A model generated the notes under the pieces. That model made no database searches. It saw only the letters and a list, made by a program, of their open reading frames with translations, and was not told the origin of the DNA. A stretch of DNA of 64,000 nucleotides. Source: Gammaproteobacteria bacterium. Lineage in GTDB: Bacteria > Pseudomonadota > Gammaproteobacteria > Eutrophobiales > Eutrophobiaceae. How positions within the stretch are numbered: position 1 is the stretch's first letter; each line of letters begins with the position of its first letter. The stretch is from NCBI GenBank assembly GCA_963422205.2, contig CAXMWX010000011.1, forward strand, positions 132,686 through 196,685, read 5' to 3'. Shown in pieces: positions 6,127 through 57,508 of the stretch. A program made the translations under genes and the position numbers.

Positions 6127-7134
6127 TCAACCCTGTTGCAGCAGGGTTTTCAAATCAATGACGGCGGCGTTGGCACGGGAGATATACGAGGCCATTACCA
6201 GCGAATGATTCGCCAGCAGCCCAAAGCCGGTGCCGTTGAGAATCACCGGACTCCACACCGTATCCTGGGTCGCCTCCAGCTCACGGATGATTTGTCGCAG
6301 GCTGACCAGCGCATTTTTCTTGATCAGCACCTGTTCAAAATCCACTTCCGCGGCGCGCAGAAAATGTATCAACGCCCAGGTCGCCCCGCGGGCCTCATAA
6401 AACACATCGTCAATCTCATACCAGGGTGTCTTGACATTGAGTTGCTGTGGCTTGGTGGTGGCTTGCTGGGCGGCGACATCGCCTTGCAGATCGGTGTTGA
6501 TGCGCTGCTGACCGACGCTGGCACTGAGGCGCTGGGACAGGCTGCCCAGCCGCTTCTCAACGATCGCCAGCCAATCGCGCAGATTATCTGCCCGGGAGTA
6601 AAACTGTGCGTCTTTCTCATCGGCATTGATCAGCCGCTGCTGGTAGCGTTCAAGCGCCTCAATGCCCTGACGGTATTCCCTCTCGCTCGCTGGCAATATC
6701 CAGGAGCTGTTATCGTAATGAAACTGCGGGTCGGCAATGCTCAGATCGACATCCTCGGTTGACTGGGTTTGCGAGCGGCTGAAGTCATTGCGGTAGGCCC
6801 TGGCGATGTCACGTACCTGGGTGAGTACACCAAATTCCCAGGCAGGCAGGTTATCCATCAACACGCCGGGCGGGAAAATATCATTACTCAAATAACCGCC
6901 CCGCTTGTCCAGCAGGATCGTCATCACTTCAATCACCGTGGCGGTTGTCACATACCCGGTCACCGCCGGTTGATCGGCAGGCAAGGCCGCCAGCGCCTGC
7001 TGTTTGACATTGAATGTGGCCGGCTCGCTGTCCCAAAGCCACATCAGTAACAGCATAATCAGGACACCGGCCAGGCTGACAAGACCCAGCAGTTTCAACA
7101 ACGGCTTGGCAGTCATCATGGAAATTTCGCGCAT
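6127..7134 (-). CDS. DUF2333 family protein
   Basis: N-terminal TM; KRGGYLSND, WEFGVLTQVRD, FYSRADNL, IDDVFYEARG. Confidence 0.85.
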   Translation of the reverse strand: MREISMMTAKPLLKLLGLVSLAGVLIMLLLMWLWDSEPATFNVKQQALAALPADQPAVTGYVTTATVIEVMTILLDKRGGYLSNDIFPPGVLMDNLPAWEFGVLTQVRDIARAYRNDFSRSQTQSTEDVDLSIADPQFHYDNSSWILPASEREYRQGIEALERYQQRLINADEKDAQFYSRADNLRDWLAIVEKRLGSLSQRLSASVGQQRINTDLQGDVAAQQATTKPQQLNVKTPWYEIDDVFYEARGATWALIHFLRAAEVDFEQVLIKKNALVSLRQIIRELEATQDTVWSPVILNGTGFGLLANHSLVMASYISRANAAVIDLKTLLQQG

Positions 7135-7186
7135 GATTATGTCTTTGTGGTGGTTAAACGGGCGGGGTTATCTGTGTGCTCATCAC

Positions 7187-7651
7187 TCACCCTATCTGCC
7201 GGTTATCCTCTTCGGTCTTTGTCGCCTTGCTGTAGCCGGTGTCCTGTCGGTTCATGTTGACCGCATGTTTCTGGCGATAAATGGCATACACCTCATCCGG
7301 CGTCAGCCCGGCGCTTAGCATGCACGATACCAGAAAATGCAGAATGTCGATCAACTCCACCCGAATGTTCTGCATATCCAGGGGATCCCTGCTCCACCAC
7401 TTCCACGGCAACTCCTCCTGCAACTCGGCCACCTCAGCCTGCATCGCCCGGCAGTAATTCGCCAGCCAGCGAGCCGGCAAGTCATTGACCTGTAATTTAT
7501 CCGCTTGTGCTGCATCACAGATCGCCTGCATACTCAACACATTGCCAGCATCATCTGTGATGTTGTGGGTGCGAAAGACATGGTTATTCAAGTCGGCCTG
7601 CATGGCAAAGAGACGGCGCAGCATGTCATGGCTATTGTTATCAGTGTACAT
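7187..7651 (-). CDS. Dimeric all-alpha dUTP diphosphatase (dUTPase_2 family)
   Basis: EVAEL...PWKWW...IRVELIDILHF...YRQKHAVNMNRQDTGY; start placed at MYTDN. Confidence 0.8.
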   Translation of the reverse strand: MYTDNNSHDMLRRLFAMQADLNNHVFRTHNITDDAGNVLSMQAICDAAQADKLQVNDLPARWLANYCRAMQAEVAELQEELPWKWWSRDPLDMQNIRVELIDILHFLVSCMLSAGLTPDEVYAIYRQKHAVNMNRQDTGYSKATKTEEDNRQIG

Positions 7652-7796
7652 ATTCCGACCCTGTCCTGTATAATGGATGGATGATGGCGTGTGACAGTCC
7701 TGCATAATTCTCATAGACAGCAACACTGAGTAAGTTCAGTAAAATTATATCGCCATGCACACACGTTAAGCAATCTCACCTGATCAATGAGGCAAC

Positions 7797-9470: not shown

Positions 9471-10346
9471 CTACAAGATAGCTGTCATGGTGCTGATGCA
9501 GGCCGCATAATACGGCTGACCAAACAGATTCAGATGATTTAATTCATGATACAGGCGGTACAGAGAGAAACGCCGCTCGGCCTCGGCCTGGAACGGCCAG
9601 ACCTCAGCATAGGCCGCCTCACAGCGCGGCCCGAAGCCGCCGAATAGCCGCATCATGCCAATCTCCGCTTCCCGCTGGCCGTAGTAACTGGCAGGATCAA
9701 ACACCAACGGCCTGCCCTGCTCATCAGCCGCGGCATTACCCCGCCAGAGATCACCGTGTAACAACACCGGCGGCTCATCAAGATCCGCCAGCAGGGTATC
9801 CAGCCGGGCCATCAACTGATCGCCCAGTTTTAACAAGGCATCATCAGAATCGGCCTGACGGGCAAATTGTTGCAGCTGCCATCCCAGCCGCTGATAACGC
9901 CAGAATGACAGCCAGTCGCTGCTCCAGGCGTTGGGTTGCACAGTCTCTCCCAGGTAGTTGTCCATCATAAAACCGAATTGCCCGGCCTGAGTCTTTTGAT
10001 GCAGCAAGGCCAGCGTGCGGCCAAGCTGCTCGGCCCAATCCGCCGCCGCCTCACCAAACGCCAGTGCTTCCAGCACCAGAAAATCATCTGCCCGGACCAC
10101 TGGCCGGGGTACCCGGATGATATTCGCCTCGGTAAACAGCGCCAATGCCTCAAATTCAGCAGCATACATACCGGGCAGACTGGCGATGCGGGGATGGGTC
10201 TTGACAAAATAGCGCCGCCCGTCATCCAGCGTGATGAGACGGCTATCATTGATACTGCCGCCATGACGGGGCTCGGCGCTTGCCAGCCTGGCCGGCTTGC
10301 CAGTGGCCTCGGTGAGCGCAGCTTCGAGTGTTTGCTGTAACGGCAT
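9471..10346 (-). CDS. Fructosamine/ribulosamine 3-kinase family protein
   Basis: GGSIN, YFVK, LLHGDLWRGN, FDPASYYGQREAEIGM. Confidence 0.92.
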   Translation of the reverse strand: MPLQQTLEAALTEATGKPARLASAEPRHGGSINDSRLITLDDGRRYFVKTHPRIASLPGMYAAEFEALALFTEANIIRVPRPVVRADDFLVLEALAFGEAAADWAEQLGRTLALLHQKTQAGQFGFMMDNYLGETVQPNAWSSDWLSFWRYQRLGWQLQQFARQADSDDALLKLGDQLMARLDTLLADLDEPPVLLHGDLWRGNAAADEQGRPLVFDPASYYGQREAEIGMMRLFGGFGPRCEAAYAEVWPFQAEAERRFSLYRLYHELNHLNLFGQPYYAACISTMTAIL

Positions 10347-10404
10347 ATTGCATCATACAGCCTTGACAAACGGCTTGCCCCGAACGACGTTGATTCTAAC
10401 GGCG

Positions 10405-10899
10405 TTATTGATCCTGGCAACGTTGACAATAGGCGAGTATCCCCGGGCAGGCCTGCTCAATCATATCCAGCACGGCCACAAAACCCTCAGCCCCGCCGTA
10501 GTAAGGATCAGGCACCGAGGGGGCACCATCATTGCCCTGCTGGCCGGGCAGGAAGCTCCCCAGCAGGCGAATATGCGCTTTTGTGCCGCCAGCCATCGCT
10601 TCCAGATAGCGCAGATTATCGGTATCCATCGCCACCACCAGATCAAACGTCCTGACATCGTCCCGCATGACCTGTCGGGCGATTGAATCCAGGGTATACC
10701 CCCGGGCCGAGGCCGCCTCCTGCATGCGGTGATCTGCCGGGGCGCCGCAATGGTAGTCTGTCGTACCGGCAGAATCGATTCGGATCTGATCAGTGAGATG
10801 GCGCTCGGCGATATAGTGCTTGAAGATCCCCTCGCCTGCGGGCGAGCGGCAGATATTGCCCATACAGACAAACAACACGGCGATAGGATTCTCTGCCAT
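10405..10899 (-). CDS. Low molecular weight protein-tyrosine phosphatase family
   Basis: FVCMGNICRSP P-loop, VPDPYYGG. Confidence 0.94.
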   Translation of the reverse strand: MAENPIAVLFVCMGNICRSPAGEGIFKHYIAERHLTDQIRIDSAGTTDYHCGAPADHRMQEAASARGYTLDSIARQVMRDDVRTFDLVVAMDTDNLRYLEAMAGGTKAHIRLLGSFLPGQQGNDGAPSVPDPYYGGAEGFVAVLDMIEQACPGILAYCQRCQDQ

Positions 10900-10966: not shown

Positions 10967-13282
10967 CTACTGATAGATATCTGCTGCTGCCGCCTCGGCC
11001 ACATAATACCAGCCAGTTGAGTTGAGTTTGTAGTAGGAAATAATGCGCTCACCTGCCCCCTCATCAACCAGCATCAGGCCATGCTCAGAGGTGCTGTCCC
11101 GGATACTGGCAACGACTTCCTGATAGTGATATGCCGGCAGTTCAGCCGCCGTATTGATCAAGGTGCCCACGGCATATTGCTCCGCCTTGTCTTGTGTGCT
11201 GACGACCACCCGGCCCTCGTTATCCAGCAGATAGGCCGCATGAATGTCCTGCATGGCCTCGGTGATGAGCAAATGCTCACGGATGTAATCCAGGGTCATT
11301 TCAACGGCGGCAACGCCAATGATGATGCCCTCGGTGTCGTACAGCGGTGTCGTGCAGGGTAACATCCAGCCCCGCCCGGTGACATCAATATACGGCAGGG
11401 TCCAGCCAGTTCGCCGCTGCTGCAATGCCTGCCGGTACCAGGGCCGCTGCCTCGGATCGTATACCTCTGTATAGCCCGTCCGGCCTGGGTAGTCCATCAG
11501 AAATCCTTCCTCCAGGCCCAGAAAGGTGCTGATCGGCAGACCGGCAGAGCGGATCACCTGCCGGATAGCGGCCACATCGTTTATGGGGATGTCCAGATCA
11601 TGGCTACGCACGATAAGCCGCTTGAGGGTGTGCCGTAGCGGATTGAGCCGGCGAATGACTGGCTCCGCTGCCCTCCGGGTCACGCCCGGTGCCAGCTTGT
11701 ATACCGGCCAGTCAACACTGATGGGGATGTTGTGCGCCGGCGCCGGGGTATAATCCGGAGGGGCGGTATCGGCAATCAGGTAATCCGTGTGCAGGTAATA
11801 CGGGGACGGGTCGGCATGACCATGATTCAACAAATTACTGGCAGCGGCAGCAATGCCCTCTAAAATGGCTTCATACTCCAGAAACCGGCTGTCTATGTGC
11901 TGTGCCTGGCTGCCGACTTGTCGCAGGAAATCGCTGGTATGCTCGGCGGCCAGCTGTGCCTGAATCCGATCTTTCTGGTGCATGTATAGCGTGCCTGCGG
12001 TGATAACAAAGGCAGCGATGATGCTGTAGGCAAAGATATTAAATGCCGCCACACGATGCCGGTTCATCCACCGGGCGGCTTGCTGTACGAGCGTATCCGG
12101 CTGTGCCTGAATGGCCCTACCATTTAGAAAACGCCGGATATCAGTGGCAAACTCATCCACTGTGTCATAACGATCTTCCGGCTTGAACCGGGTTGCCTTG
12201 TGGACAATCGCAATCAGCGGCCCGGGCACCTCCAGCTTGCGAGAGAAGGGAATGGGTTTTCTTATCTTGCCCTTGCGTGCCTCGCTGAGTAACAGAATAT
12301 GATTATGCCCCTTATAGGGTTTACGCAAGATAATCAATTCATAGAGAATCAGCCCCAGGGTAAATAAATCACTTCGATGATCCAGCATCTCATGTTTGCC
12401 CATCGCCTGTTCAGGCGACATATACGCCGGCGTACCCAGCATATCACCTGACTGGGTCACCCCTCCGATCTGTGCATCGTTATCATCATGTATTGACTGT
12501 TGTGCCAGTTCCGTATACGTATCGTCGCTCAGGTTGATGACCTTGGCGATCCCCCAGTCCATCACATAGACATCATTGTAGGGGCCGACCATAATATTCA
12601 ACGGCTTCAAGTCACGATGTATCACGCCTTTCCTATGGGCATAGTGCATGGCATCACAGACTTTCAGAAAATGTTGCAGCAAGGCGGCCAGATTATGCCT
12701 CTCGTCCGGCCTCCCCCATTGCCTGACTTGCTCCCTGGCATCCTCCAGCATGTCTTTCAGGGTTTTGCCATCGATCAGTTTCATGGTGTAACCGACATGA
12801 TTCTGTACCACTCTCATCCGGTAGATGGGCACGATATTGGGATGTTCCAGCTGGGCGGTGATCTGTGCCTCTTTGAAGAACCGCACCATGTAATTCGGCT
12901 CATCGGCAATATGTGAATGAATCTTCTTCAGCGCCACCGTGCGCCCCAGTTCATTATCCCTGGCCATCAGTATCTCACCCATCGCCCCATGAGCAATGGA
13001 CTGCAACACGGTAAACTCATGATCATCAAGATGGCGGGTTCGGGTAGCAAAGGACTCCTGGATATGCCCGGCACTGTGATCGGTGATACTGGTCAGATGG
13101 CTGCTCTCTATGCTTTGCACCGCCTCGTACTCATCCGGGCTGATCTGATTGCCCGCATAAAGATCATCAATGAAACCATAGACATCATCATTGCAATACT
13201 GATCCTGATACTCTGAATACAGCTTATCCAGCTTCTCACCAGGTAATGAATGGATGCTCTGTTTTATCTGTACTGGTATCAT
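10967..13282 (-). CDS. Hanks-type Ser/Thr protein kinase with TM helix and C-terminal dCache-like sensor domain
   Basis: GAMGEI, VALK, HRDLKPLN, DWGIAK, GTPAYMSPEQ; TM AAFNIFAYSIIAAFVITAGTLY; YDPRQRPWY...WTLPYID...GVAAVE. Confidence 0.9.
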   Translation of the reverse strand: MIPVQIKQSIHSLPGEKLDKLYSEYQDQYCNDDVYGFIDDLYAGNQISPDEYEAVQSIESSHLTSITDHSAGHIQESFATRTRHLDDHEFTVLQSIAHGAMGEILMARDNELGRTVALKKIHSHIADEPNYMVRFFKEAQITAQLEHPNIVPIYRMRVVQNHVGYTMKLIDGKTLKDMLEDAREQVRQWGRPDERHNLAALLQHFLKVCDAMHYAHRKGVIHRDLKPLNIMVGPYNDVYVMDWGIAKVINLSDDTYTELAQQSIHDDNDAQIGGVTQSGDMLGTPAYMSPEQAMGKHEMLDHRSDLFTLGLILYELIILRKPYKGHNHILLLSEARKGKIRKPIPFSRKLEVPGPLIAIVHKATRFKPEDRYDTVDEFATDIRRFLNGRAIQAQPDTLVQQAARWMNRHRVAAFNIFAYSIIAAFVITAGTLYMHQKDRIQAQLAAEHTSDFLRQVGSQAQHIDSRFLEYEAILEGIAAAASNLLNHGHADPSPYYLHTDYLIADTAPPDYTPAPAHNIPISVDWPVYKLAPGVTRRAAEPVIRRLNPLRHTLKRLIVRSHDLDIPINDVAAIRQVIRSAGLPISTFLGLEEGFLMDYPGRTGYTEVYDPRQRPWYRQALQQRRTGWTLPYIDVTGRGWMLPCTTPLYDTEGIIIGVAAVEMTLDYIREHLLITEAMQDIHAAYLLDNEGRVVVSTQDKAEQYAVGTLINTAAELPAYHYQEVVASIRDSTSEHGLMLVDEGAGERIISYYKLNSTGWYYVAEAAAADIYQ

Positions 13283-13486: not shown

Positions 13487-14104
13487 TTAATCAAGCAAGT
13501 GTTTAAGCTGTCGATAATCTTCCGGTCGATCCAGATCGTGTTTCTCATCCAGTTCAAAGCAGGATAAGCCCATGCGCTGTATCCTGTTTCTTGTTTGTGA
13601 CAAGACAGTCGCTTCACCCCAGTCTATATCAGCAAACAACGCCGCGTATGCCTCCCTCAGACCAATCAGATAATAGCCCCCATCCACTGCCGGCCCCAGC
13701 ACGACATCATAACCTGCATTCAGTTTACTCATGCCTTGAGCAAGATCGGCAGTCGTCAATGCCGGACAATCACAGCCAACAATCATCGTATTTTTATACT
13801 GCCTCAAGCTCTGCTTGCAGGCGTTTAACATCCGCTCGCCCAGGGTCATGCCCTGCTGCAAAGATAACCTGATAGCAAACTCCGCTGCCAGGGATTCCAG
13901 CAACGGGTCGGCCAGCGTGGGCGTTGCCCAAAGATAGCTGTCCCATTCATCAGAGGCAGTCGCCGTTGCGATAGTCTTGTGCAGTAATTTCTGATAAATA
14001 CACCGGGTTTGCTGCTCGCCGTATGCCGCCAGCAAGCGGGTTTTCACCCGCCCTGATAACGGCGTTTTGGTAAACAGTAAAACCGCCGTGCAAGGCTCAG
14101 TCAT
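13487..14104 (-). CDS. TIGR04282-type (DUF2064, CofC-like) transferase
   Basis: FTKTPLSGRVKTRL, QQGMTLGERM, GCDCP, LGPAVDGGYYLIG, DLDRPED; start overlaps the upstream stop (ATGACTGA). Confidence 0.88.
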   Translation of the reverse strand: MTEPCTAVLLFTKTPLSGRVKTRLLAAYGEQQTRCIYQKLLHKTIATATASDEWDSYLWATPTLADPLLESLAAEFAIRLSLQQGMTLGERMLNACKQSLRQYKNTMIVGCDCPALTTADLAQGMSKLNAGYDVVLGPAVDGGYYLIGLREAYAALFADIDWGEATVLSQTRNRIQRMGLSCFELDEKHDLDRPEDYRQLKHLLD

Positions 14105-14768
14105 ATTGCCTGGCAAGTGCTGCCGGGTCCCGGCCCAAATACCAGGCTAATCGTAACCACCACATATTCAGTATGGTGCGGAATATCCCTCTCTCCTCCC
14201 AGCGGCGGCTGGAGGTGATCACCGGCTGCCGGATGATGGCCGGACGTTGCAAGGCACGTAACCGTCGGCACAGATCAATATCCTCCATTAACGCAATCTC
14301 CGCATAACCATGCAATGCGAGAAAGGTTGCCCGGCGTACAAACAGGCATTGATCACCGGTCGCCACAGCGGTCAAAAAACTGCGGCAGTTCATGCCGGCC
14401 TCAATCAGGCGAAATACACAATGCTGACCGGATAATCGGACAAGGAAAAATCCCCAGACTGAACGCTGTAATGCCGCCAGCAGCAGCTGATCAAAATCAT
14501 CAACCAGCAAGGTATCGGCATGCAGAAACAGCAGGGCATCGCCATCCGCAATGGCGGCACCGGCATTCATCTGCACTGCCCGACCTTGAGGGGCGGTAAT
14601 GATTTTATCTGCACAGGCTGTAAACATATCGACACTGTTATCTTCACTGCCGCCATCAACCACGATCACCTCATGCCCGTGCTGACGTGCAGCTTGCAGG
14701 CCCGGCAGGATACCGGCGGCCTGATCTGCCTCGTTCAATACCGGTATGATAATGGACAGCGTGTGCAT
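14097..14768 (-). CDS. TIGR04283-type GT2 glycosyltransferase
   Basis: SIIIPVLNE, VDGGSED, GRAVQMNAGA, FLHAD, GDQCLF, LMED, TSSRRW. Confidence 0.88.
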   Translation of the reverse strand: MHTLSIIIPVLNEADQAAGILPGLQAARQHGHEVIVVDGGSEDNSVDMFTACADKIITAPQGRAVQMNAGAAIADGDALLFLHADTLLVDDFDQLLLAALQRSVWGFFLVRLSGQHCVFRLIEAGMNCRSFLTAVATGDQCLFVRRATFLALHGYAEIALMEDIDLCRRLRALQRPAIIRQPVITSSRRWEERGIFRTILNMWWLRLAWYLGRDPAALARQYD

Positions 14769-36595: not shown

Positions 36596-37276
36596 TCAAA
36601 CATAATACGCACTGCGGGTCATCAGCCGGGCACACAAAGTCATCGCCCGCTTGATGATGGTCGGCAGTTCTTCGCCGCCGGCATGGGCGGCTGTGGCCGC
36701 ATGATGGGCTTCGTCCTGTTTGATTTGTTCCAGGATAGCGCGGCTCTTAACGTCATGTGCTGGCAGCAGCGCCAGGTGTTCATCGAGATGAGCTTCAACC
36801 TGCCGCTCGGTCTCCACAACAAACCCCAGGCTCCATTTATCCCCACACAAGCCGACCAGGGCGCCCAAGGCAAACGAACCCCCATACCAGGCCGGATTAA
36901 GATAGCTGGTATGGCTGTTCAAGCTGTGGAGGCGCTCAGCACACCAGGCCAGATGATCGCCCTCCTCCCGTGCCGATTGCAGCAGGCTATCCCTTATGGC
37001 TGGCTGGCGCGCAACACTGGCCTGACCGTGATAAAGCCCCTGGGCAGCCACCTCGCCTGCATGGTTGATACGCATCAGCCCGGCGATGTGTTGTCGCTCC
37101 CCGGCTGTCAATGGTTTTTCATTTGCCGTTGCACTTTCCGCTGTACTTGCCTCGGAAGATGGGGCGGACGGTGTCGGCCTGCCGCTGACCTCTCGTGCCG
37201 GTACCAGCCGGCCCAGGAGACGGTCAACCCGCAGGATAAGCTGATCTGTCAGGTCGTAGGCTCGCTTGTGCATCAT
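36596..37276 (-). CDS. coq7: Demethoxyubiquinone hydroxylase Coq7
   Basis: GLMRINHAGEVAAQGLY, EEGDHLAWC, ETERQVEAHL, DEAHH; start trimmed to MMHKR. Confidence 0.92.
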   Translation of the reverse strand: MMHKRAYDLTDQLILRVDRLLGRLVPAREVSGRPTPSAPSSEASTAESATANEKPLTAGERQHIAGLMRINHAGEVAAQGLYHGQASVARQPAIRDSLLQSAREEGDHLAWCAERLHSLNSHTSYLNPAWYGGSFALGALVGLCGDKWSLGFVVETERQVEAHLDEHLALLPAHDVKSRAILEQIKQDEAHHAATAAHAGGEELPTIIKRAMTLCARLMTRSAYYV

Positions 37277-37317
37277 CACTGGATTGTTCATAAAAGCCAC
37301 GGCCAAGTCCAGTGTTA

Positions 37318-37346
37318 TTGACAGCCACCTGCGCTCGCCGTAGTAT
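37318..37346 (+). promoter_or_regulatory. sigma70 promoter of rplM-rpsI
   Basis: TTGACA-N17-TAGTAT. Confidence 0.8.
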
Positions 37347-37381
37347 GCCTTCCTTTTTGGCAGTGATACACAGGACGGGCG

Positions 37382-37810
37382 ATGACAACCTATACGGCAA
37401 CCCCCAAAGACATCACACGGGATTGGTATATTATTGATGCCAGCGGAAAGATACTTGGCCGGCTGGCAACCGAGATAGCCCGCCGCCTGCGGGGTAAACA
37501 CAAGCCCGAATATACCCCGCACATGGACACCGGAGACTATATCATTGTCATCAACGCCAGAGAGGTCGCCGTCTCCGGCAACAAGGCCACCGGCAAGCTG
37601 TATTATCGCCACTCCGGCTATCCGGGCGGCTTGAAGACCATCAGCTTTGAGAAACTGCGGCAGAGAAAACCGGAACGGCTGATCGAGGCCGCCGTCAAGG
37701 GCATGTTGCCCAGGGGGCCGCTTGGCCGGGACATGTTCCGCAAGCTGAAAGTATACGCTGATGCCAACCACCGACACGCTGCCCAGCAGCCCCAACCCTT
37801 AGATATATAA
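37382..37810 (+). CDS. rplM: 50S ribosomal protein L13
   Basis: [31 protein letters not shown]. Confidence 0.98.
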
Positions 37811-51538: not shown

Positions 51539-53650
51539 ATGGTTACGATTGGTGATTTAGCGAAGACAATCAGCACCTACCTGGATCAAAGCGAGGTAGA
51601 CAAGGTCAACCGTGCCTATCAATTCAGTGCCCTCGCCCACGAAGGGCAACGCCGCAAAAGCGGTGAGCCGTATATCCACCATCCGCTGGAGGTGGCCATG
51701 ATACTGGCCGAGATGCACATGGATCATCAAACCCTGGCGGCGGCCATCCTGCACGATGTGATTGAGGACACGGCCACCTTAAAGCACCAGATCAGGAGAA
51801 AATTTGGCAAAGGGGTGGCGGAGCTGGTGGATGGGGTCAGCAAGCTGACACAGATTGAATTTGACAGCCAGGCCGAGGCCAAGGCGCATAACTTCAGAAA
51901 AATGCTCATGGCCATGAGCCATGATATCCGGGTGATACTGGTCAAGCTCGCCGACAGATTACACAATATGCGTACCCTGGGCGCCCTTGCCCCGGAGAAG
52001 CGCCGACGTATCGCCCGGGAGACGCTGGAAATCTACGCCCCCATTGCACAGCGATTGGGCATTAACGGCATCCGCCTGGAGTTGGAAGAGCTGGGCTTTG
52101 CCACCCTGTACCCCTTGCGTTTTCGCATCCTCACCGAGCAGGTAGTCAAATCAAGAGGCCACCGAAAAACAATCATCGACAAGATCAGGAACGCCCTCCG
52201 CCGGCGCTTGCGGCAGGAAAAGATTCCCGTGCAGATAGTCGGGCGGGAGAAACATCTCTATGGCATCTACCAGAAGATGCTGAACAAACAACTGTCTTTT
52301 CATGAAGTGTATGATGTGTATGCCTTTCGCATTATCGTTGATGATGTTGATACCTGTTATCGGGTCGTGGGCACAGTGCATAACCTGTATAAACCTGTGC
52401 CAGGTAAATTCAAAGACTATATCGCGATCCCGAAATCCAACGGCTATCAGTCTTTGCACACTGTTTTATTCGGCCCCTTTGGTGTTCCCATAGAAGTGCA
52501 GATCCGCACACGGGAAATGAATGATGTCGCCGAGGCGGGCATCGCTGCTCATTGGTTATACAAGTCCGGGGCATCATCAGACAGCTCAGGCACGCACAAG
52601 CGCGCACGGGAATGGTTACAACAGATCATGGAGATGCAGACCACAGCAGGCAATCCGCAAGAGTTCCTGGAACATGTGAAGATCGATCTGTTCCCCGAAT
52701 CGGTCTATGCGTTCACGCCCAAGGGCGAGATCATGGAACTGCCCAGGGGCGCCACCGCGGTTGATTTTGCCTATGCCATCCACTCCGATGTGGGCAACGC
52801 CTGTGTGGGCGCCAGAATCGACAGACGACTGGCCCCCCTGGCAAGCAAGCTGACCACCGGCCAGACGGTGGAGATCATCACCGCCCCCGGCGCCCGGCCG
52901 GATCCGGCCTGGCTGAATTTTACTGTCTCGGCCAAGGCCCGTTCCAATATCCGGCATTTCCTGAAAAACCTGCGGACTAACGAAGCGGTGGCACTTGGCA
53001 AACGTCTGCTGGTCAGAGAGCTGCTGGCATTGTCCGTCAACTACGATGAGATAAGCGATGAGCAAATACAGGGCGTGTTAAGTGAGTTTCAGCTTGACAG
53101 TGAAGCGGAGTTACTCAAGGAAATTGGCCTGGGTAATCGCCTGGCCACCCTGATCGCACAGCATTTACTGAATCCGGCGCTCACACCGGACAAGGTCAAC
53201 GGCTCAAAGAAACTCCCGTTTATCATCAAAGGCACCGAAGGCATGGTGATCAATTTTCCCAAATGCTGCCTGCCTATCCCTGGCGATCCGGTACATGGCT
53301 ATGTGACTGCCGGACGCGGCATCGTTGTGCATCACCAGTCCTGCCCGAATACCGCTGAGTACCGCAACCAGCCGGACAAATGGATCTACGTCGAGTGGGA
53401 GCCGAAAATGGATGGGGATTTTCCGACCAACATCCGCGTTGATGCCACCAACCAAAAAGGCATACTGGCAAAAATCGCCTCCACCATTTCCTATCAAAAC
53501 GCCAATATTTTAAGCGTTGATATGGCCGACAAAGATGACAGATACACGCACCTGCGCTTCATCGTCGAGGTAAAAGACCGGCAACATCTGGCACATATTC
53601 TGCGACGGATCAAGGGCATAAAACACGTGGCACGGGTCAGCAGAAGATAA
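51539..53650 (+). CDS. spoT: Bifunctional (p)ppGpp synthetase/hydrolase SpoT
   Basis: HD motif LHDVIED, KLADRLHNMRT, NGYQSLHT, TGS and ACT domains. Confidence 0.97.
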   Translation: MVTIGDLAKTISTYLDQSEVDKVNRAYQFSALAHEGQRRKSGEPYIHHPLEVAMILAEMHMDHQTLAAAILHDVIEDTATLKHQIRRKFGKGVAELVDGVSKLTQIEFDSQAEAKAHNFRKMLMAMSHDIRVILVKLADRLHNMRTLGALAPEKRRRIARETLEIYAPIAQRLGINGIRLELEELGFATLYPLRFRILTEQVVKSRGHRKTIIDKIRNALRRRLRQEKIPVQIVGREKHLYGIYQKMLNKQLSFHEVYDVYAFRIIVDDVDTCYRVVGTVHNLYKPVPGKFKDYIAIPKSNGYQSLHTVLFGPFGVPIEVQIRTREMNDVAEAGIAAHWLYKSGASSDSSGTHKRAREWLQQIMEMQTTAGNPQEFLEHVKIDLFPESVYAFTPKGEIMELPRGATAVDFAYAIHSDVGNACVGARIDRRLAPLASKLTTGQTVEIITAPGARPDPAWLNFTVSAKARSNIRHFLKNLRTNEAVALGKRLLVRELLALSVNYDEISDEQIQGVLSEFQLDSEAELLKEIGLGNRLATLIAQHLLNPALTPDKVNGSKKLPFIIKGTEGMVINFPKCCLPIPGDPVHGYVTAGRGIVVHHQSCPNTAEYRNQPDKWIYVEWEPKMDGDFPTNIRVDATNQKGILAKIASTISYQNANILSVDMADKDDRYTHLRFIVEVKDRQHLAHILRRIKGIKHVARVSRR

Positions 53651-53751
53651 GCCCGGCATGTCTGGCCAGCGCCGCTTTTGCACCAGGCTGCCCGCCCGGG
53701 AGAGCAGGGCAAGGCGGGCGAGTATGCCAACTGCCGGGGCTGCTGTGCTTG

Positions 53752-53760
53752 TGGTAAGCT
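53752..53760 (+). promoter_or_regulatory. Putative extended -10 promoter of the MTase-HNH gene (leaderless)
   Basis: TG-g-TAAGCT lies 7 nt before GTG-ATG; no Shine-Dalgarno visible. Confidence 0.45.
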
Positions 53761-53770
53761 GGCGCCCGTG

Positions 53771-54973
53771 ATGACTGACACGGCGGCTAACTGGCAATCC
53801 AGGACCATCTGGACTGGCGACTGTATTGACATCATGCGCGGCATGAACTCGGCCACGGTGGACTTGATCTACTTAGACCCGCCGTTTAACTCCAGGGCCA
53901 ACTATGCCGCACCCATCGGCTCAAAAGCGGCCGGGGCGGCCTTTAAGGATATCTGGACTTTAAGCGACATAGACGTGGAATGGATCAACCTGATCGAAGC
54001 CAAACACCCGAAACTCTATCGGGTGCTGCTGGCCGCCACCACCGGGAGCGACAAGTCGTACCTTGCCTACATGGCGGCGCGTCTGCTGGAGATGCGACGG
54101 ATCCTCAAAGCGGCCGGCTCTATCTACCTGCATTGTGATCCGACGATGGGCCATTACCTGAAGCTGGTGATGGACGCCGTCTTTGGGCGTGCCTGTTTCA
54201 GGAACGAAATCGTATGGTACTACCGCGGGGCGGGGACGCCCAGGCGTGATTTTGCCCGGCGCCACGATCTGATTTTTCGGTATGCGGGCAAGGGCTGTTT
54301 TTTCGATCCCGACCCGGCCCGCCAACCCTATGCCGATGCGACCGTGGCACGCTTCTCCCACTATATCGGCAATGTTCGGGAAGGGCGCAATTACGGTCGG
54401 CAAACGCTAAACCCCAGGGGCAAACATCCCGATGATGTACTCATCGATATCCAGCCGATCGCACCCTCGGCAAAGGAACGCACCGGCTATCCCACACAAA
54501 AGCCGCTGGCGCTGTTGGAGCGCATCATCAAGGCCAGTTCCAGCGAGGGCGATGTGGTGTTTGATCCCTTCTGCGGTTGCGCCACCACGCTGGTGGCCGC
54601 CGATGCCTGGGGGCGGCATTGGGCCGGGGTCGACATCTCTCCCAAGGCCGCCGAGCTCATCAGGCAGCGTATTGATGACAATCTGCGCCGCATCATCCAT
54701 CGTCGGGACATCCCGCAACGTACAGACCTCGGCCGGCTGCCGCGCTATAACTCACCTAAAAACCGCAAGCACCTCTACGGCCTTCAATATGGTAATTGCG
54801 CCGGTTGCGGGGCGCATTTTGAAGCACGACACATGGAAGTCGATCACATCATCGCCCACCGCAAGGGCGGCACCGATCACATTGACAACCTACAACTGCT
54901 GTGCGGCAACTGCAACCGTATCAAGGGCGACCGGGGCATGGACTATCTGAAGACGAAGCTACAGATGCCATGA
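53771..54973 (+). CDS. Beta-class N6-A/N4-C DNA methyltransferase fused to a C-terminal HNH endonuclease
   Basis: VDLIYLDPPF (motif IV) precedes YPTQKP and DPFCGCAT (motif I); C-terminal CAGC...EVDHII...DNLQLLCGNCN. Confidence 0.9.
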   Translation: MTDTAANWQSRTIWTGDCIDIMRGMNSATVDLIYLDPPFNSRANYAAPIGSKAAGAAFKDIWTLSDIDVEWINLIEAKHPKLYRVLLAATTGSDKSYLAYMAARLLEMRRILKAAGSIYLHCDPTMGHYLKLVMDAVFGRACFRNEIVWYYRGAGTPRRDFARRHDLIFRYAGKGCFFDPDPARQPYADATVARFSHYIGNVREGRNYGRQTLNPRGKHPDDVLIDIQPIAPSAKERTGYPTQKPLALLERIIKASSSEGDVVFDPFCGCATTLVAADAWGRHWAGVDISPKAAELIRQRIDDNLRRIIHRRDIPQRTDLGRLPRYNSPKNRKHLYGLQYGNCAGCGAHFEARHMEVDHIIAHRKGGTDHIDNLQLLCGNCNRIKGDRGMDYLKTKLQMP

Positions 54974-55024: not shown

Positions 55025-55411
55025 ATGACAAAACAGATCATACACACAGACAAGGCGCCCGCGGCCATCGGCACCTACTCACAAGCCATAAAAAGCAACA
55101 CCACCGTGTATCTGTCCGGGCAAATTGCCCTGGCCCCTGAGGACATGGTGCTGGTCAACACAGACAGGGCAGCCGAGATACATCAGGTTTTCAAAAACCT
55201 CCAGGCAGTGGCCGAGGCCGCTGGCGGCAGCCTGGCCGACATCGTCAAACTGAATATCTACTTAACAGACCTGGCGTGTTTTCCGCTCATCAACGAGATC
55301 ATGGCAACGTATTTCAACACGCCCTACCCGGCCAGAGCAGCCGTTGGCATCGCCGCCCTGCCGAAAGGGGCGAACGTGGAAATGGACGCCATCATGGAGT
55401 TGGAAGACTAA
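55025..55411 (+). CDS. ridA: RidA family imine deaminase
   Basis: [33 protein letters not shown]. Confidence 0.93.
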
Positions 55412-57508
55412 TTGCCTGCCCCCGCCTTGGAACTGCATCACTCCATCATTACATTAAAAGGGGTCGGGCCGGCGATACAACAACGGCTGGCAAAGTTAGG
55501 CATCGTCCTGATACAAGACTGCCTGTTCCATTTGCCCAACCGCTATATCGATCGCACACAGATAAGGCACATCGGCTCCGTGGTGGCGGGGGAGGTCGTG
55601 CTGATACAGGGCGAGATCACGCAGACACACATGGCCTATGGCAAACGCCGCCAGTTGCTCTGCCACATCAGCGATGATACCGGCGGTTTGGTGTTACGTT
55701 TTTTTCACTTCACCCACCGACAGAAAAATCAACTCCTGCCTGGCAAGACCCTACGGTGCTGGGGGAAGGTGAGGAGTGGCCGACAGTCGCTGGAGCTTGC
55801 TCATCCAGAGTATCAGATGCTGGCTAAAGACAAAGAGGAGGCGCTGGATAAGACGCTGACACCGGTCTATCCGGCCACCGAGGGGATCTCGCAATTTAAA
55901 CTCAGAGCATTATCCACCCAGGCATTACACGTGCTGCGGGATGATGCCAGGGGCCTGCCCGAATTAGTGCCGCAACATATACTGAAAAAATACACATTCT
56001 CAACGCTGGCCGAATCATTATGCTATGTACACAGGCCACCGGTGGATGCCGATACTGATGCCTTGCTACAGGGCCGGCACAAGGCGCAAAAGCGTCTGGC
56101 ATTTGAGGAGTTGCTGGCACATCAACTCAGCCTGCGTAGCCTGAGAGCAAATATCAAACAAAAACAAGCCCATGCCATAGCATCTGGGAGACCGCCGGCG
56201 ATTGAGCAGTTCATTGCCGGGCTTAATTTTACACTGACACAGGCACAAGCACGGGTCATTGATGAGGTTGTTACCGATATGTCGAAAGAGAAACCGATGT
56301 TGCGTCTGCTGCAAGGCGATGTGGGTTGCGGTAAAACCGTGATCGCAGCGCTCGCTGCCCTGTATGTCATCCATGCCGGTTATAAAGTGGCTCTGATGGC
56401 ACCGACGGAGATCCTCTGTGATCAGCATTTTACCACCATCAGCCAATGGTTTGCTGCACTCGCCATACCGGTGGTGCTGCTGAAGGCCAAACAGACCGAA
56501 GGGCAACGTCAACACACTTTAAACCGACTAACATCACCCCAACCGCTGCTTGCCATTGGTACACATGCGTTATTTCAGGAACATGTCAGCATCACTCAAC
56601 TGGCCCTGGTGATCATCGATGAACAACACCGCTTTGGTGTGCATCAGCGGCTGACGCTGATGGAGAAAGGCAGCACAGGCAATCACTACCCCCATCAACT
56701 GGTCATGACCGCCACCCCCATCCCAAGGACGCTGGCCATGACCCTGTTTGCCGAGCTGGATATCTCGGTGATTGATGCGCTGCCCCCGGGGCGAGTCCCG
56801 ATCAACACCACGGTGCTGTCGAACAGAAAACGAGCTGACATCATCCAGCGGGTAGATAACATCTGTCGTGCCGGTCGGCAGGTCTACTGGGTCTGTGCAT
56901 CGATAGAGAACTCGGAGGCGGTTGATCTGGAGCCGGCTGAAGAGATTGCCGCCCTGCTCACCGATAGCCTGCCTGCCCGCCGCATTGCCCTGGTGCATGG
57001 TAGAATGAAGAGCAGCGAGAAGGAGCAGATCATGCAGGCGTTTAAGCTGGGCGAGATCGATCTGCTGGTAGCAACCACAGTCATTGAGGTGGGGGTGGAT
57101 GTGGCGAATGCCAATCTGATGGTCATTGAAAATGCCGAGCGGCTGGGTTTATCCCAGCTGCATCAGCTGCGTGGGCGGGTTGGGCGGGGTGCGTATGAAA
57201 GCCACTGCGTGCTGCTGTACAAAGCACCGCTGTCAAACATGGCAAAAGCCCGTCTTAGCACCCTGCGTGATACCCACGATGGCTTTCTCATCGCCGAAAA
57301 AGATCTCCAATTAAGGGGGCCGGGCGAGTTATCCGGTTCACGGCAGACCGGCCTGCCGGTATTGAAGATCGCTGATTTTGCCAGAGATGCCGAGCAACTG
57401 CCCTTAGCTTGTGACAGTGCGGATGATATGCTGAAAAATACCCCCGAGACCGCCAACAAACTGATCAAGCGATGGTTAAATTATCATCATGATTTTGTTA
57501 CTGTCTAG
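55412..57508 (+). CDS. recG: ATP-dependent DNA helicase RecG
   Basis: QGDVGCGKT, DEQHRFGV, MTATPIPR, QLHQLRGRVGRG. Confidence 0.97.
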   Translation: MPAPALELHHSIITLKGVGPAIQQRLAKLGIVLIQDCLFHLPNRYIDRTQIRHIGSVVAGEVVLIQGEITQTHMAYGKRRQLLCHISDDTGGLVLRFFHFTHRQKNQLLPGKTLRCWGKVRSGRQSLELAHPEYQMLAKDKEEALDKTLTPVYPATEGISQFKLRALSTQALHVLRDDARGLPELVPQHILKKYTFSTLAESLCYVHRPPVDADTDALLQGRHKAQKRLAFEELLAHQLSLRSLRANIKQKQAHAIASGRPPAIEQFIAGLNFTLTQAQARVIDEVVTDMSKEKPMLRLLQGDVGCGKTVIAALAALYVIHAGYKVALMAPTEILCDQHFTTISQWFAALAIPVVLLKAKQTEGQRQHTLNRLTSPQPLLAIGTHALFQEHVSITQLALVIIDEQHRFGVHQRLTLMEKGSTGNHYPHQLVMTATPIPRTLAMTLFAELDISVIDALPPGRVPINTTVLSNRKRADIIQRVDNICRAGRQVYWVCASIENSEAVDLEPAEEIAALLTDSLPARRIALVHGRMKSSEKEQIMQAFKLGEIDLLVATTVIEVGVDVANANLMVIENAERLGLSQLHQLRGRVGRGAYESHCVLLYKAPLSNMAKARLSTLRDTHDGFLIAEKDLQLRGPGELSGSRQTGLPVLKIADFARDAEQLPLACDSADDMLKNTPETANKLIKRWLNYHHDFVTV

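Follow-up and report, generated by a model that had tools for sequence, protein, structure and literature searches.

A β-class DNA methyltransferase–HNH fusion between spoT and ridA: a candidate single-chain restriction-modification enzyme from a horizontally spreading family

The fusion protein and its domains

Between the spoT and ridA genes in a 64-kb stretch of a gammaproteobacterial genome (contig CAXMWX010000011.1; this whole stretch of 64,000 nucleotides is called the window, and positions follow its numbering), a single plus-strand gene (53771..54973) encodes a DNA methyltransferase (MTase) and an HNH nuclease domain in one chain of 400 amino acids (protein P0001). The maximal open frame runs from a TTG at 53678 to the stop codon ending at 54973, and the methionine encoded by the ATG at 53771 was matched by the aligned N-termini of 44 homologues. 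An earlier, sequence-only reading of this locus had described one open reading frame (ORF) of 400 residues, which the translation and the homologues bore out. Its start at 53752 was slightly off, because the homologue N-termini align at the ATG; position 53752 lies 19 nucleotides 5′ of that codon and is not an in-frame start, a minor error.

Two Pfam domains account for most of the protein. N6_N4_Mtase (PF01555) matched residues 30–297 (53858..54661, + strand; E = 1.6e-41, 143.1 bits against a cut-off of 26.7) and HNH (PF01844) matched residues 343–388 (54797..54934, + strand; E = 1.4e-13, 51.2 bits against a cut-off of 21.4), both far above chance level, and PF14279 also matched the HNH tail (38.5 bits, cut-off 27.5). 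In the MTase domain, which PDB and fold matches likewise place among the β-class N6/N4 enzymes, the catalytic motif IV (DPPF, residues 36–39, 53876..53887) comes first, followed by a variable segment (residues 176–235, 54296..54475) and then by motif I (DPFCGCAT, residues 265–272, 54563..54586), which binds S-adenosylmethionine (AdoMet). This circularly permuted order is that of the β class. A linker of about residues 302–342 (54674..54796), recognized by its column identity and in the structural model, leads to the zinc-type HNH domain, in which the CxxC, DH, N, and CxxCN elements are CAGC at 343–346, Asp358-His359, Asn373, and CGNCN at 378–382 (nucleotides 54797–54916). Two CxxC pairs for a structural zinc are present (Cys343/Cys346 and Cys378/Cys381), and Asp358-His359, Asn373, and Asn382 make up a catalytic set with a histidine general base, an asparagine, and a metal ligand, in the HNN variant of the motif. 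The positions of DPPF, DPFCGCAT, and the HNH elements, the β-class motif order, and the intact state of the nuclease domain were thus all read correctly from the sequence at the outset.

Searches of other libraries divided the protein in the same way. Sequence matches in the PDB covered residues from about 97 to 301 for M.BceJIV, M.RsrI, CcrM, and M.MboIIA, and the HNH tail for Cas9 and a group II intron maturase. Among NCBIfam models, adenine-MTase families matched the front and IscB and Cas9 HNH families the tail (E = 4.4e-09 for the IscB HNH model), all below their full-length cut-offs. The aspartate of motif IV and the nearest matches favor N6-adenine rather than cytosine-N4 as the predicted target; N4-cytosine enzymes (PvuII, rotifer N4CMT) also stand among the structural matches. 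Pfam detected no RAMA or ParB domain in the protein.

The fusion is one member of a very large, uncharacterized, horizontally spreading family. Every one of the 8000 candidates scored in a word-indexed search had E ≤0.001, and the best 120 of these, about 380–430 residues long and 63–100% identical to the window protein, carried PF01555 together with PF01844 in 119 cases and PF01555 alone in one. In the domain-architecture comparison proposed by the sequence-only reading, the fusion is thus no isolated case, and more than 120 clusters 63–78% identical to it have the same build. An exhaustive search of 50%-identity representatives returned 3111 proteins at E ≤1e-30; among the best 150, 127 were at least 380 residues long, and 80 of those 127 retained motif IV, motif I, and the HNH pattern as judged by regular expressions. 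The best-scoring representative, P0122 (1598 residues), has three occurrences of motif IV, three of motif I, and no HNH pattern; it must be three MTases fused in one protein or else a tandem array read through.

Conservation extended to the nuclease end. In an alignment of 45 sequences 42–78% identical to the window protein, HNH residues Cys343, Asp358, Asn373, Cys378, and Cys381 were invariant and Cys346, His359, and Asn382 were conserved in at least 90%; in motif IV, Asp36 and Pro38 were invariant and Pro37 and Phe39 were at or above 90%, and Asp265, Phe267, and Gly269 of motif I were invariant. Across the 120 close homologues, mean column identity was 0.757 in the N-terminal part of the MTase, 0.686 in its C-terminal part, and 0.774 in the HNH domain; residues 176–235 were lowest at 0.526, and the linker (residues 301–340) stood at 0.563. 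All three motif sets were kept in 112 of these 120 proteins, with four lacking the motif-I pattern and four the HNH pattern. The HNH catalytic and zinc residues are therefore under strong purifying selection and as conserved as the MTase core, and the refuting condition set by the sequence-only reading, their degeneration among homologues, does not hold.

An AlphaFold model built on the 45-sequence alignment was confident (predicted local distance difference test, pLDDT, 89.8; predicted template-modeling score, pTM, 0.88). One 10-residue block of the linker (301–310) had a pLDDT of 77, with the remainder of the linker at 93–96. The closest PDB neighbors found by Foldseek were M.BceJIV, MboIIA, and RsrI (TM-score to target 0.72–0.84, E = 1e-18), followed by CcrM (6pbd) at 0.52; sequence identity to these solved β-class enzymes is just 21–25%, and no solved PDB chain found by the fold search spans both an MTase and an HNH domain. 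A homodimer prediction scored 0.75 versus 0.00 for the best of three controls. Of proteins with known structures, 20 of 30 that form pairs of one chain attained that score, as did 1 of 23 that are single chains, a calibration that holds only roughly here because the prediction was run on a custom alignment. Separate runs shared at least 81% of contacts, partner pLDDT was at least 74, and the predicted interface (residues 84–89, 124–132, 143–188, and 219–225) lies in the MTase core, not in the HNH domain. On this prediction, a homodimer joined at the MTase core is the probable working form of the protein.

Related loci, exchangeable segments, and IS1595 elements

A profile search of genome contigs with the family alignment yielded 79 distinct loci from 13 named phyla. 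ORFs at these loci were taken as the longest non-overlapping frames of at least 90 residues and were clustered, a procedure that left five loci without a called family ORF (an antisense ORF was chosen). Among 126 immediate-neighbor ORFs at 72 loci, there was no recurrent restriction, helicase, or specificity partner. Neighbors were unrelated housekeeping genes such as cox1, folE, dxs, hemH, aspS, nuoD, pdxJ, lysS, ppk, thyA, dprA, tsaE, and proB; others were further transposases, parts of toxin-antitoxin systems, or ORFs without a Pfam match. ABC ATPases and short-chain dehydrogenases were considered as partners and rejected, as both are generic families found at varying distances across the loci. 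The spoT and ridA flanks of the window gene were found at none of the 79 loci. A homing-like element in a core operon, one of the possibilities raised by the sequence-only reading, is unsupported for this reason; the neighbors vary among loci, and the visible vehicle is an IS1595 transposon, as described below. Nor is the insertion singular or peculiar to spoT–ridA, a point on which the sequence-only reading needs correcting: the window gene is one copy from a huge mobile family scattered among varied housekeeping genes.

The nuclease end of the protein is interchangeable. Among 88 MTase-family ORFs at 74 of the 79 loci, the C-terminal domain was HNH in 64, of the T5orf172/MUG113/GIY-YIG-like type in 9, Mrr_cat of the PD-(D/E)xK fold in 5, and absent or fragmentary in 10 (types were assigned with Pfam on 18 examples and with a local BLAST classification). 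The presence of three unrelated nuclease folds at one position argues that cleavage is the selected function.

The presumed target-recognition segment is exchangeable as well. Assignment of this role to residues 176–235, between motifs VIII and X, rests on the domain order of β-class enzymes, and column variability and tandem paralogs both mark the same stretch. At locus L039, where four copies lie in tandem, the C-terminal part of the MTase is 98–100% identical, the linker 95–100%, and the HNH domain 100%, with only 11–27% identity in residues 176–235; two of the four copies are near-identical, which suggests a recent duplication. Tandem copies at L013 are 100, 100, and 95% identical in the C-terminal MTase part, linker, and HNH domain versus 32% in the recognition segment, and the two copies at L001 are 88, 95, and 96% identical versus 13%. 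The segment has thus been exchanged like a cassette between tandem paralogs. A like pattern is described, in passages of PMC4081073, for the MmeI family of specificity-diversifying restriction-modification (R-M) enzymes.

Head-to-tail arrays of two to four MTase-nuclease paralogs were seen at L039:6427-12347, L049:12-3731, L043:6507-9413, and L013:27-3738, each with near-identical downstream halves and recognition segments that are unrelated to one another. Directly 3′ of the two tandem MTase-HNH genes of L043 lies a separate 335-residue ORF with an HNH domain of its own (L043:9443-10447). A 366-residue MTase relative in which no nuclease domain was found lies between Mu-type portal and Mu F-like genes (L052:6888-10318), a prophage context unlike that of the other loci.

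These observations bear on the possibility that the window protein is an orphan or epigenetic MTase whose HNH domain is a zinc-ribbon DNA clamp or weak nickase, that it restricts nothing, and that the window copy was co-opted into a spoT-ridA-recG operon. Many solitary β-class MTases exist, the PADLOC oMTase model matches the front of the protein, and CcrM, which has a non-specific C-terminal DNA-binding domain and is among the closest solved relatives, offers an analogy; the gene also lies on the same strand as spoT and ridA, is tightly spaced with both, and has no promoter-like or plus-strand terminator-like site between it and them. However, the conserved positions go beyond the zinc cysteines to the His359 general base, Asp358, Asn373, and Asn382; replacement of HNH by GIY-YIG-like and Mrr-type domains would make no sense for a clamp; diversification of recognition segments would not be expected in a housekeeping epigenetic regulator; and no relative shares the insertion site of the window gene. 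We regard this explanation as quite improbable.

Many relatives sit beside a transposase. The relevant cluster of ORFs, about 310–330 residues long, combines DDE_Tnp_IS1595 (PF12762) and Zn_ribbon_IS1595 (PF12760), as found in 12 of 18 ORFs scanned. By tblastn, an IS1595-type transposase is present at 17 of the 79 loci and lies within 1.75 kb of the fusion gene at 16, directly upstream on the same strand at 11 and downstream in convergent orientation at 5. Inverted repeats ending GGGGAATTATAT or close variants, which may belong to the ISNwi1-like subgroup of insertion sequence (IS) ends, bracket transposase and MTase-nuclease gene together; the pairs measure 38 nucleotides with 84% complementarity at L018, 30 nucleotides with 90% at L079, and 40 nucleotides with 88% at L004. 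Perfect 8-bp target duplications flank six of eight repeat-bounded elements inspected (L019, L042, L060, L076, L078, and L079); at L018 six of eight bases agree, and at L055, where the inverted repeats surround the MTase-nuclease gene alone, there is no duplication. Versions with T5orf172 or Mrr nucleases also occur inside IS1595 elements (L059, L079, and L055). Passenger-carrying IS1595 members form an accepted category of "transporter IS" with genes unrelated to transposition, according to the portion of PMC3129680 that treats them.

Some elements contain further genes. A 4.3-kb element bounded by inverted repeats (L060:7887-12149) holds an MTase-HNH gene, a P63C-domain gene on the minus strand (9573-10541), and the transposase; just beyond its border, on the minus strand (6235-7746), is a separate 503-residue ORF that partly matches N6_N4_Mtase. 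In three repeat-bounded elements, ORFs of 222–238 residues upstream of the fusion gene overlap its start (L002:7333-8001, L004:7313-8017, and L028:7285-8001). Those of L002 and L004 have no Pfam match and no match elsewhere in the locus set; that of L028 has a weak match to IS1 transposase and, as its sole match in the set, 64% identity to an IS1-like ORF downstream at L011. These upstream frames may be spurious products of high GC content or may be cargo.

Might the MTase-nuclease assist IS1595 movement, by second-strand cleavage or by timing transposition through methylation, with the window copy as a leftover? At L018, L044, L045, L068, and L076, transposase and fusion overlap at start and stop codons or are separated by gaps of 3–37 nucleotides, which suggests co-expression, and the unit is conserved across differing nuclease types (T5orf172 at L059, Mrr at L079). 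But IS1595-family elements normally require the DDE transposase alone, the passengers covered in PMC3129680's account of transporter IS are unrelated to transposition, most copies (63 of 79 loci) have no transposase nearby, the gene order varies between upstream and convergent, and variable recognition segments would go unexplained. We consider a role in transposition extremely improbable.

The family has crossed phylum borders. In a quick maximum-likelihood tree of 56 HNH-bearing sequences, from which 15 of 70 family ORFs of 370–520 residues that lacked the HNH pattern and all fragments were excluded, phylum labels change 25 times, against a minimum of 9 and a shuffled mean of 32.0, and the starred branches alone force at least seven changes for Pseudomonadota and five for Chloroflexota; paralogy and binning errors could inflate such counts. 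The window protein grouped with proteins from Acidobacteriota and Dehalococcoidia (69% identity; Shimodaira–Hasegawa-like approximate likelihood-ratio support, SH-aLRT, 89) inside a starred clade of 13 sequences from at least six phyla. Identities of 60–69% between phyla appear to be far above what would be expected of a vertically inherited core gene.

Taxon names give a hint of habitat. Sponge-named taxa account for 11 of the 79 loci (Candidatus Poribacteria 7, Poriferihabitaceae 3, and Porisulfidus 1), and others come from Dehalococcoidia, Acidobacteriota, Caldilineae, Rhodothermia, Binatia, and further groups, these five being members of the usual sponge consortium. Judged from the names alone, the 11 sponge-named loci suggest that the family circulates in sponge-associated consortia. 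The fused family could contribute to the reported enrichment of PF01555 and PF01844 in sponge metagenomes.

The window copy and its surroundings

The host is an uncultured gammaproteobacterium, and the best match to its SpoT is 78% identical. The 56 window ORFs compared with NCBIfam describe a stretch of core chromosome, with genes for RND (resistance-nodulation-division) efflux, rdgB, rph, yicC, gmk, rpoZ, and spoT on one side of the fusion gene and ridA, recG, ubiA, and others through coaX and birA on the other. On the plus strand, spoT (51539..53650; NF008303, 952 bits against a cut-off of 947) is followed by a 120-nucleotide spacer (53651..53770), the fusion gene, a ridA-family gene that begins 51 nucleotides past its stop codon (55025..55411; TIGR00004, 157 bits against 106), and recG (55412..57508; NF008163, 956 bits against 796). 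No restriction enzyme, HsdS, Res-type helicase, controller protein, integrase, or transposase was found among the 56 ORFs, and tblastn over the window found neither a second fusion copy nor an IS1595 transposase; the absence of a separate nuclease, HsdS, helicase, or controller that had been noted near the gene therefore holds for the full 64 kb.

Stripped down to a solo gene, the window copy is an ordinary member of the family that lacks a transposase. No adjacent DDE_Tnp_IS1595 transposase, no bracketing inverted or direct repeats, no IS end motif, and no 8-bp target duplication were found in the searches of the spacers and flanks, and these flanks have no similarity to those of related loci. 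Insertion between spoT and ridA is nevertheless what we infer from the sequence, because the closest homologues are in other phyla, homology ends at the borders of the coding sequence, and the gene's codon usage is the most deviant in the window (distance 1.076, the highest of 25 window genes of at least 300 codons, the next being 0.927). Scanning of the spacers on either side of the gene detected no promoter-like site and no terminator-like site on the plus strand; a single terminator-like site lies on the minus strand. Given the common strand, the spacing of 120 and 51 nucleotides, and the lack of such sites, co-transcription with spoT, ridA, and recG is plausible, and the four genes are probably transcribed together.

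The lack of transposase, inverted repeats, and target duplication, together with the visibly broken state of some relatives, could mark the window copy as the dead remnant of an insertion made long ago. Its 400-codon frame is intact, however, every conserved motif is present, and the structural model is confident at the values given above, and we judge decay very unlikely.

Three other features of the window deserve mention. A 771-residue Ser/Thr protein kinase (10970-13282, minus strand) has a kinase domain that also matches the defense-associated kinases MAD6 and PglW, well below their cut-offs, and no adjoining defense genes. Two neighboring glycosyltransferases (13490-14768, minus strand), beside thyA and lgt, match TIGR04282 and TIGR04283, families of arsenosugar biosynthesis, above cut-off. 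A 399-residue ORF (36599-37795, minus strand) has a match to COQ7-type demethoxyubiquinone monooxygenase that is confined to residues 184–399, and its first 183 residues may reflect an over-long ORF call.

A candidate single-chain restriction-modification enzyme

The reading that we favor, at somewhat better than even confidence and on sequence evidence, is that the fusion is a mobile, Type IIC-like R-M enzyme in a single polypeptide, in the REBASE sense of restriction and modification in one chain. The N-terminal β-class MTase, probably specific for N6-adenine, would use its own variable recognition segment between motifs VIII and X to select a DNA site for methylation and cleavage alike. With AdoMet present, host sites would be methylated; unmethylated sites in incoming DNA would be cut by the tethered C-terminal HNH domain, a His-Asn-Asn variant with a Cys4 zinc site. 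Homodimerization through the MTase core would provide two HNH sites, one per strand, sufficient for a double-strand break. The gene itself would be selfish and mobile, given that relatives ride IS1595-family transposons across phylum borders. The sequence-only reading had also proposed a one-gene R-M system; that proposal now has comparative support from the swapping of nuclease domains and recognition cassettes, and cleavage is still a prediction. The same reading had the architecture right; the link to transposons, the swapping of domains, the spread across phyla, and the probable dimer had escaped it.

Several points weigh against a restricting enzyme. First, the third catalytic position of the nuclease is Asn rather than His; HNN variants are active in other families. 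Second, one chain that both cuts and protects the same site risks killing a naive host. Third, PADLOC-DB v2 has no system model for the fusion, and its matches are MTase_II, MTase_III, and oMTase for the front and REase_II, PtuB, and Cas9 for the tail, so that the PADLOC check suggested by the sequence-only reading returned models for each half and none spanning both, which leaves defense by the fused architecture a prediction. Fourth, the full fusion hardly occurs in phage and plasmid records: by tblastn, query coverage of at least 80% was reached in 1 of 564 phage and 1 of 343 plasmid matches, the others being restricted to the MTase part, and such near-absence is unusual for a mobile R-M gene. 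Fifth, copies at L010, L068, L070, L073, and L076 are split or truncated, and because several relatives are broken in this way, maintenance of the family is not universal. Sixth, the composition of the window gene deviates modestly (GC 0.588 against a mean of 0.555, z only +1.2; third-position GC, GC3, +1.3 standard deviations). Finally, because β-class MTase dimers have already been solved, the favorable dimer score may merely mirror likeness to M.BceJIV, CcrM, MboIIA, and RsrI.

The same enzyme mechanism could have been selected for another reason, with the fusion acting as selfish addiction cargo that stabilizes itself and its IS1595 carrier by post-segregational killing and with phage defense as a by-product. 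In a cell that had lost the gene, methylation would be diluted while leftover nuclease went on to cut the chromosome. Carriage between inverted repeats with target duplications, scattered single insertions among housekeeping genes instead of defense islands, and cross-phylum spread all fit such a role, and a survey of mobile R-M forms includes, in the passages concerned, units flanked by inverted repeats and insertion into operon-like structures (PMC2853133). On the other hand, at 63 of the 79 loci no transposase lies within 1.75 kb of the gene, selection for new anti-invader specificities would better account for both the rapid exchange of recognition segments and the arrays whose copies differ in them, and a single chain loses methylase and nuclease together, which would weaken classical post-segregational killing. 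We therefore hold addiction cargo to be unlikely, if less so than the alternatives discussed in earlier sections.

A broader proposal goes beyond the single-chain R-M enzyme. The family may constitute a compact, plug-and-play R-M class of about 400 residues that has so far gone unrecognized, with a β-class adenine MTase as scaffold and with exchangeable recognition cassette and C-terminal nuclease (HNH, GIY-YIG-like, or Mrr-type), carried as an IS1595 passenger in at least 13 phyla and amplified into multi-specificity tandem arrays: a transposon-borne toolkit of innate immunity, especially in dense consortia living with hosts, such as sponge microbiomes. We offer this generalization tentatively, with less than even confidence. 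If the fusion does restrict, no smaller self-contained R-M architecture would be known, and no combined R-M type would previously have joined a β-class MTase to an HNH nuclease. Exchange of recognition cassettes on a constant 400-residue frame would supply enzymologists and tool builders with a natural series of proteins that methylate and cut at new sites. Carriage by transposons shows how insertion sequences can take immunity or addiction genes straight from one phylum to another. In current annotation, thousands of family genes are called simply "DNA methyltransferase" or "hypothetical protein", names that conceal a probable nuclease.

The open full-text literature that we searched contained no description of a β-class MTase–HNH fusion, and REBASE or InterPro may already carry it among their putative types. 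Pingoud et al. 2014 (PMC4081073), in treating Type IIC, do not mention a β-class MTase with a C-terminal HNH domain, and the sections of PMC12707154, PMC5714182, PMC4752239, PMC10305163, and PMC9674854 that surfaced in the search treat matters other than this architecture.

Known systems share parts of the design. M.BceJIV, CcrM, M.RsrI, and M.MboIIA have the same MTase fold and motif order and a core homodimer like the one predicted here, but lack a nuclease domain; CcrM, like the fusion, has an extra C-terminal domain, in its case for DNA binding. From the nuclease side, PADLOC models for REase_II (PDLC03418), Septu PtuB, and Cas9 HNH matched the tail (E = 2e-07 to 1e-05), with the same CxxC...DH...N...CxxC layout, which is also found in IscB. 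Unlike the tethered HNH of the fusion, zinc-type HNH restriction endonucleases, PtuB, and Cas9/IscB are aimed by separate domains, partner ATPases, or RNA guides, and any MTase is a separate gene. Other combinations of MTase and nuclease are on record, as in RAMA-domain proteins in which N6-adenine MTases, or partners of theirs, are joined to HNH, URI/GIY-YIG, REase, or T5orf172 domains (described in part of PMC4738411) and a ParB-MTase with nicking activity (likewise in part of PMC3592412), but these are built on a RAMA reader or a ParB domain. As for carriage, relatives of the fusion gene fit the IS1595 transporter IS as cargo, and the window copy has no IS part at all.

The nearest functional parallels are the Type IIC/IIG enzymes MmeI, BpuSI, Eco57I, and the atypical BtgZI. 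As set out in the relevant text of PMC4081073, Type IIC is defined by restriction and modification in one protein, a definition that covers the window protein, in which Pfam places endonuclease and MTase domains on one polypeptide. An N-terminal PD-(D/E)xK nuclease and a γ-class MTase, found in the majority, are there typical of Type IIC and not defining. The contrast with that classical architecture, already drawn in the sequence-only reading, is supported by the same text. Type IIC/IIG proteins have a PD-(D/E)xK nuclease that is usually N-terminal, a γ-class MTase with NPPY, and about 900–1000 residues, whereas the window protein has 400 residues with a β-class DPPF MTase first and HNH last. 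BtgZI resembles it in having the MTase first and the nuclease last, but its MTase is of the α class. MmeI needs no separate MTase, and specificity in Type IIC/IIG enzymes diverges through the recognition module, again according to those pages of PMC4081073. Like the window protein as we read it, these enzymes place cleavage and methylation in one chain under the direction of one recognition module.

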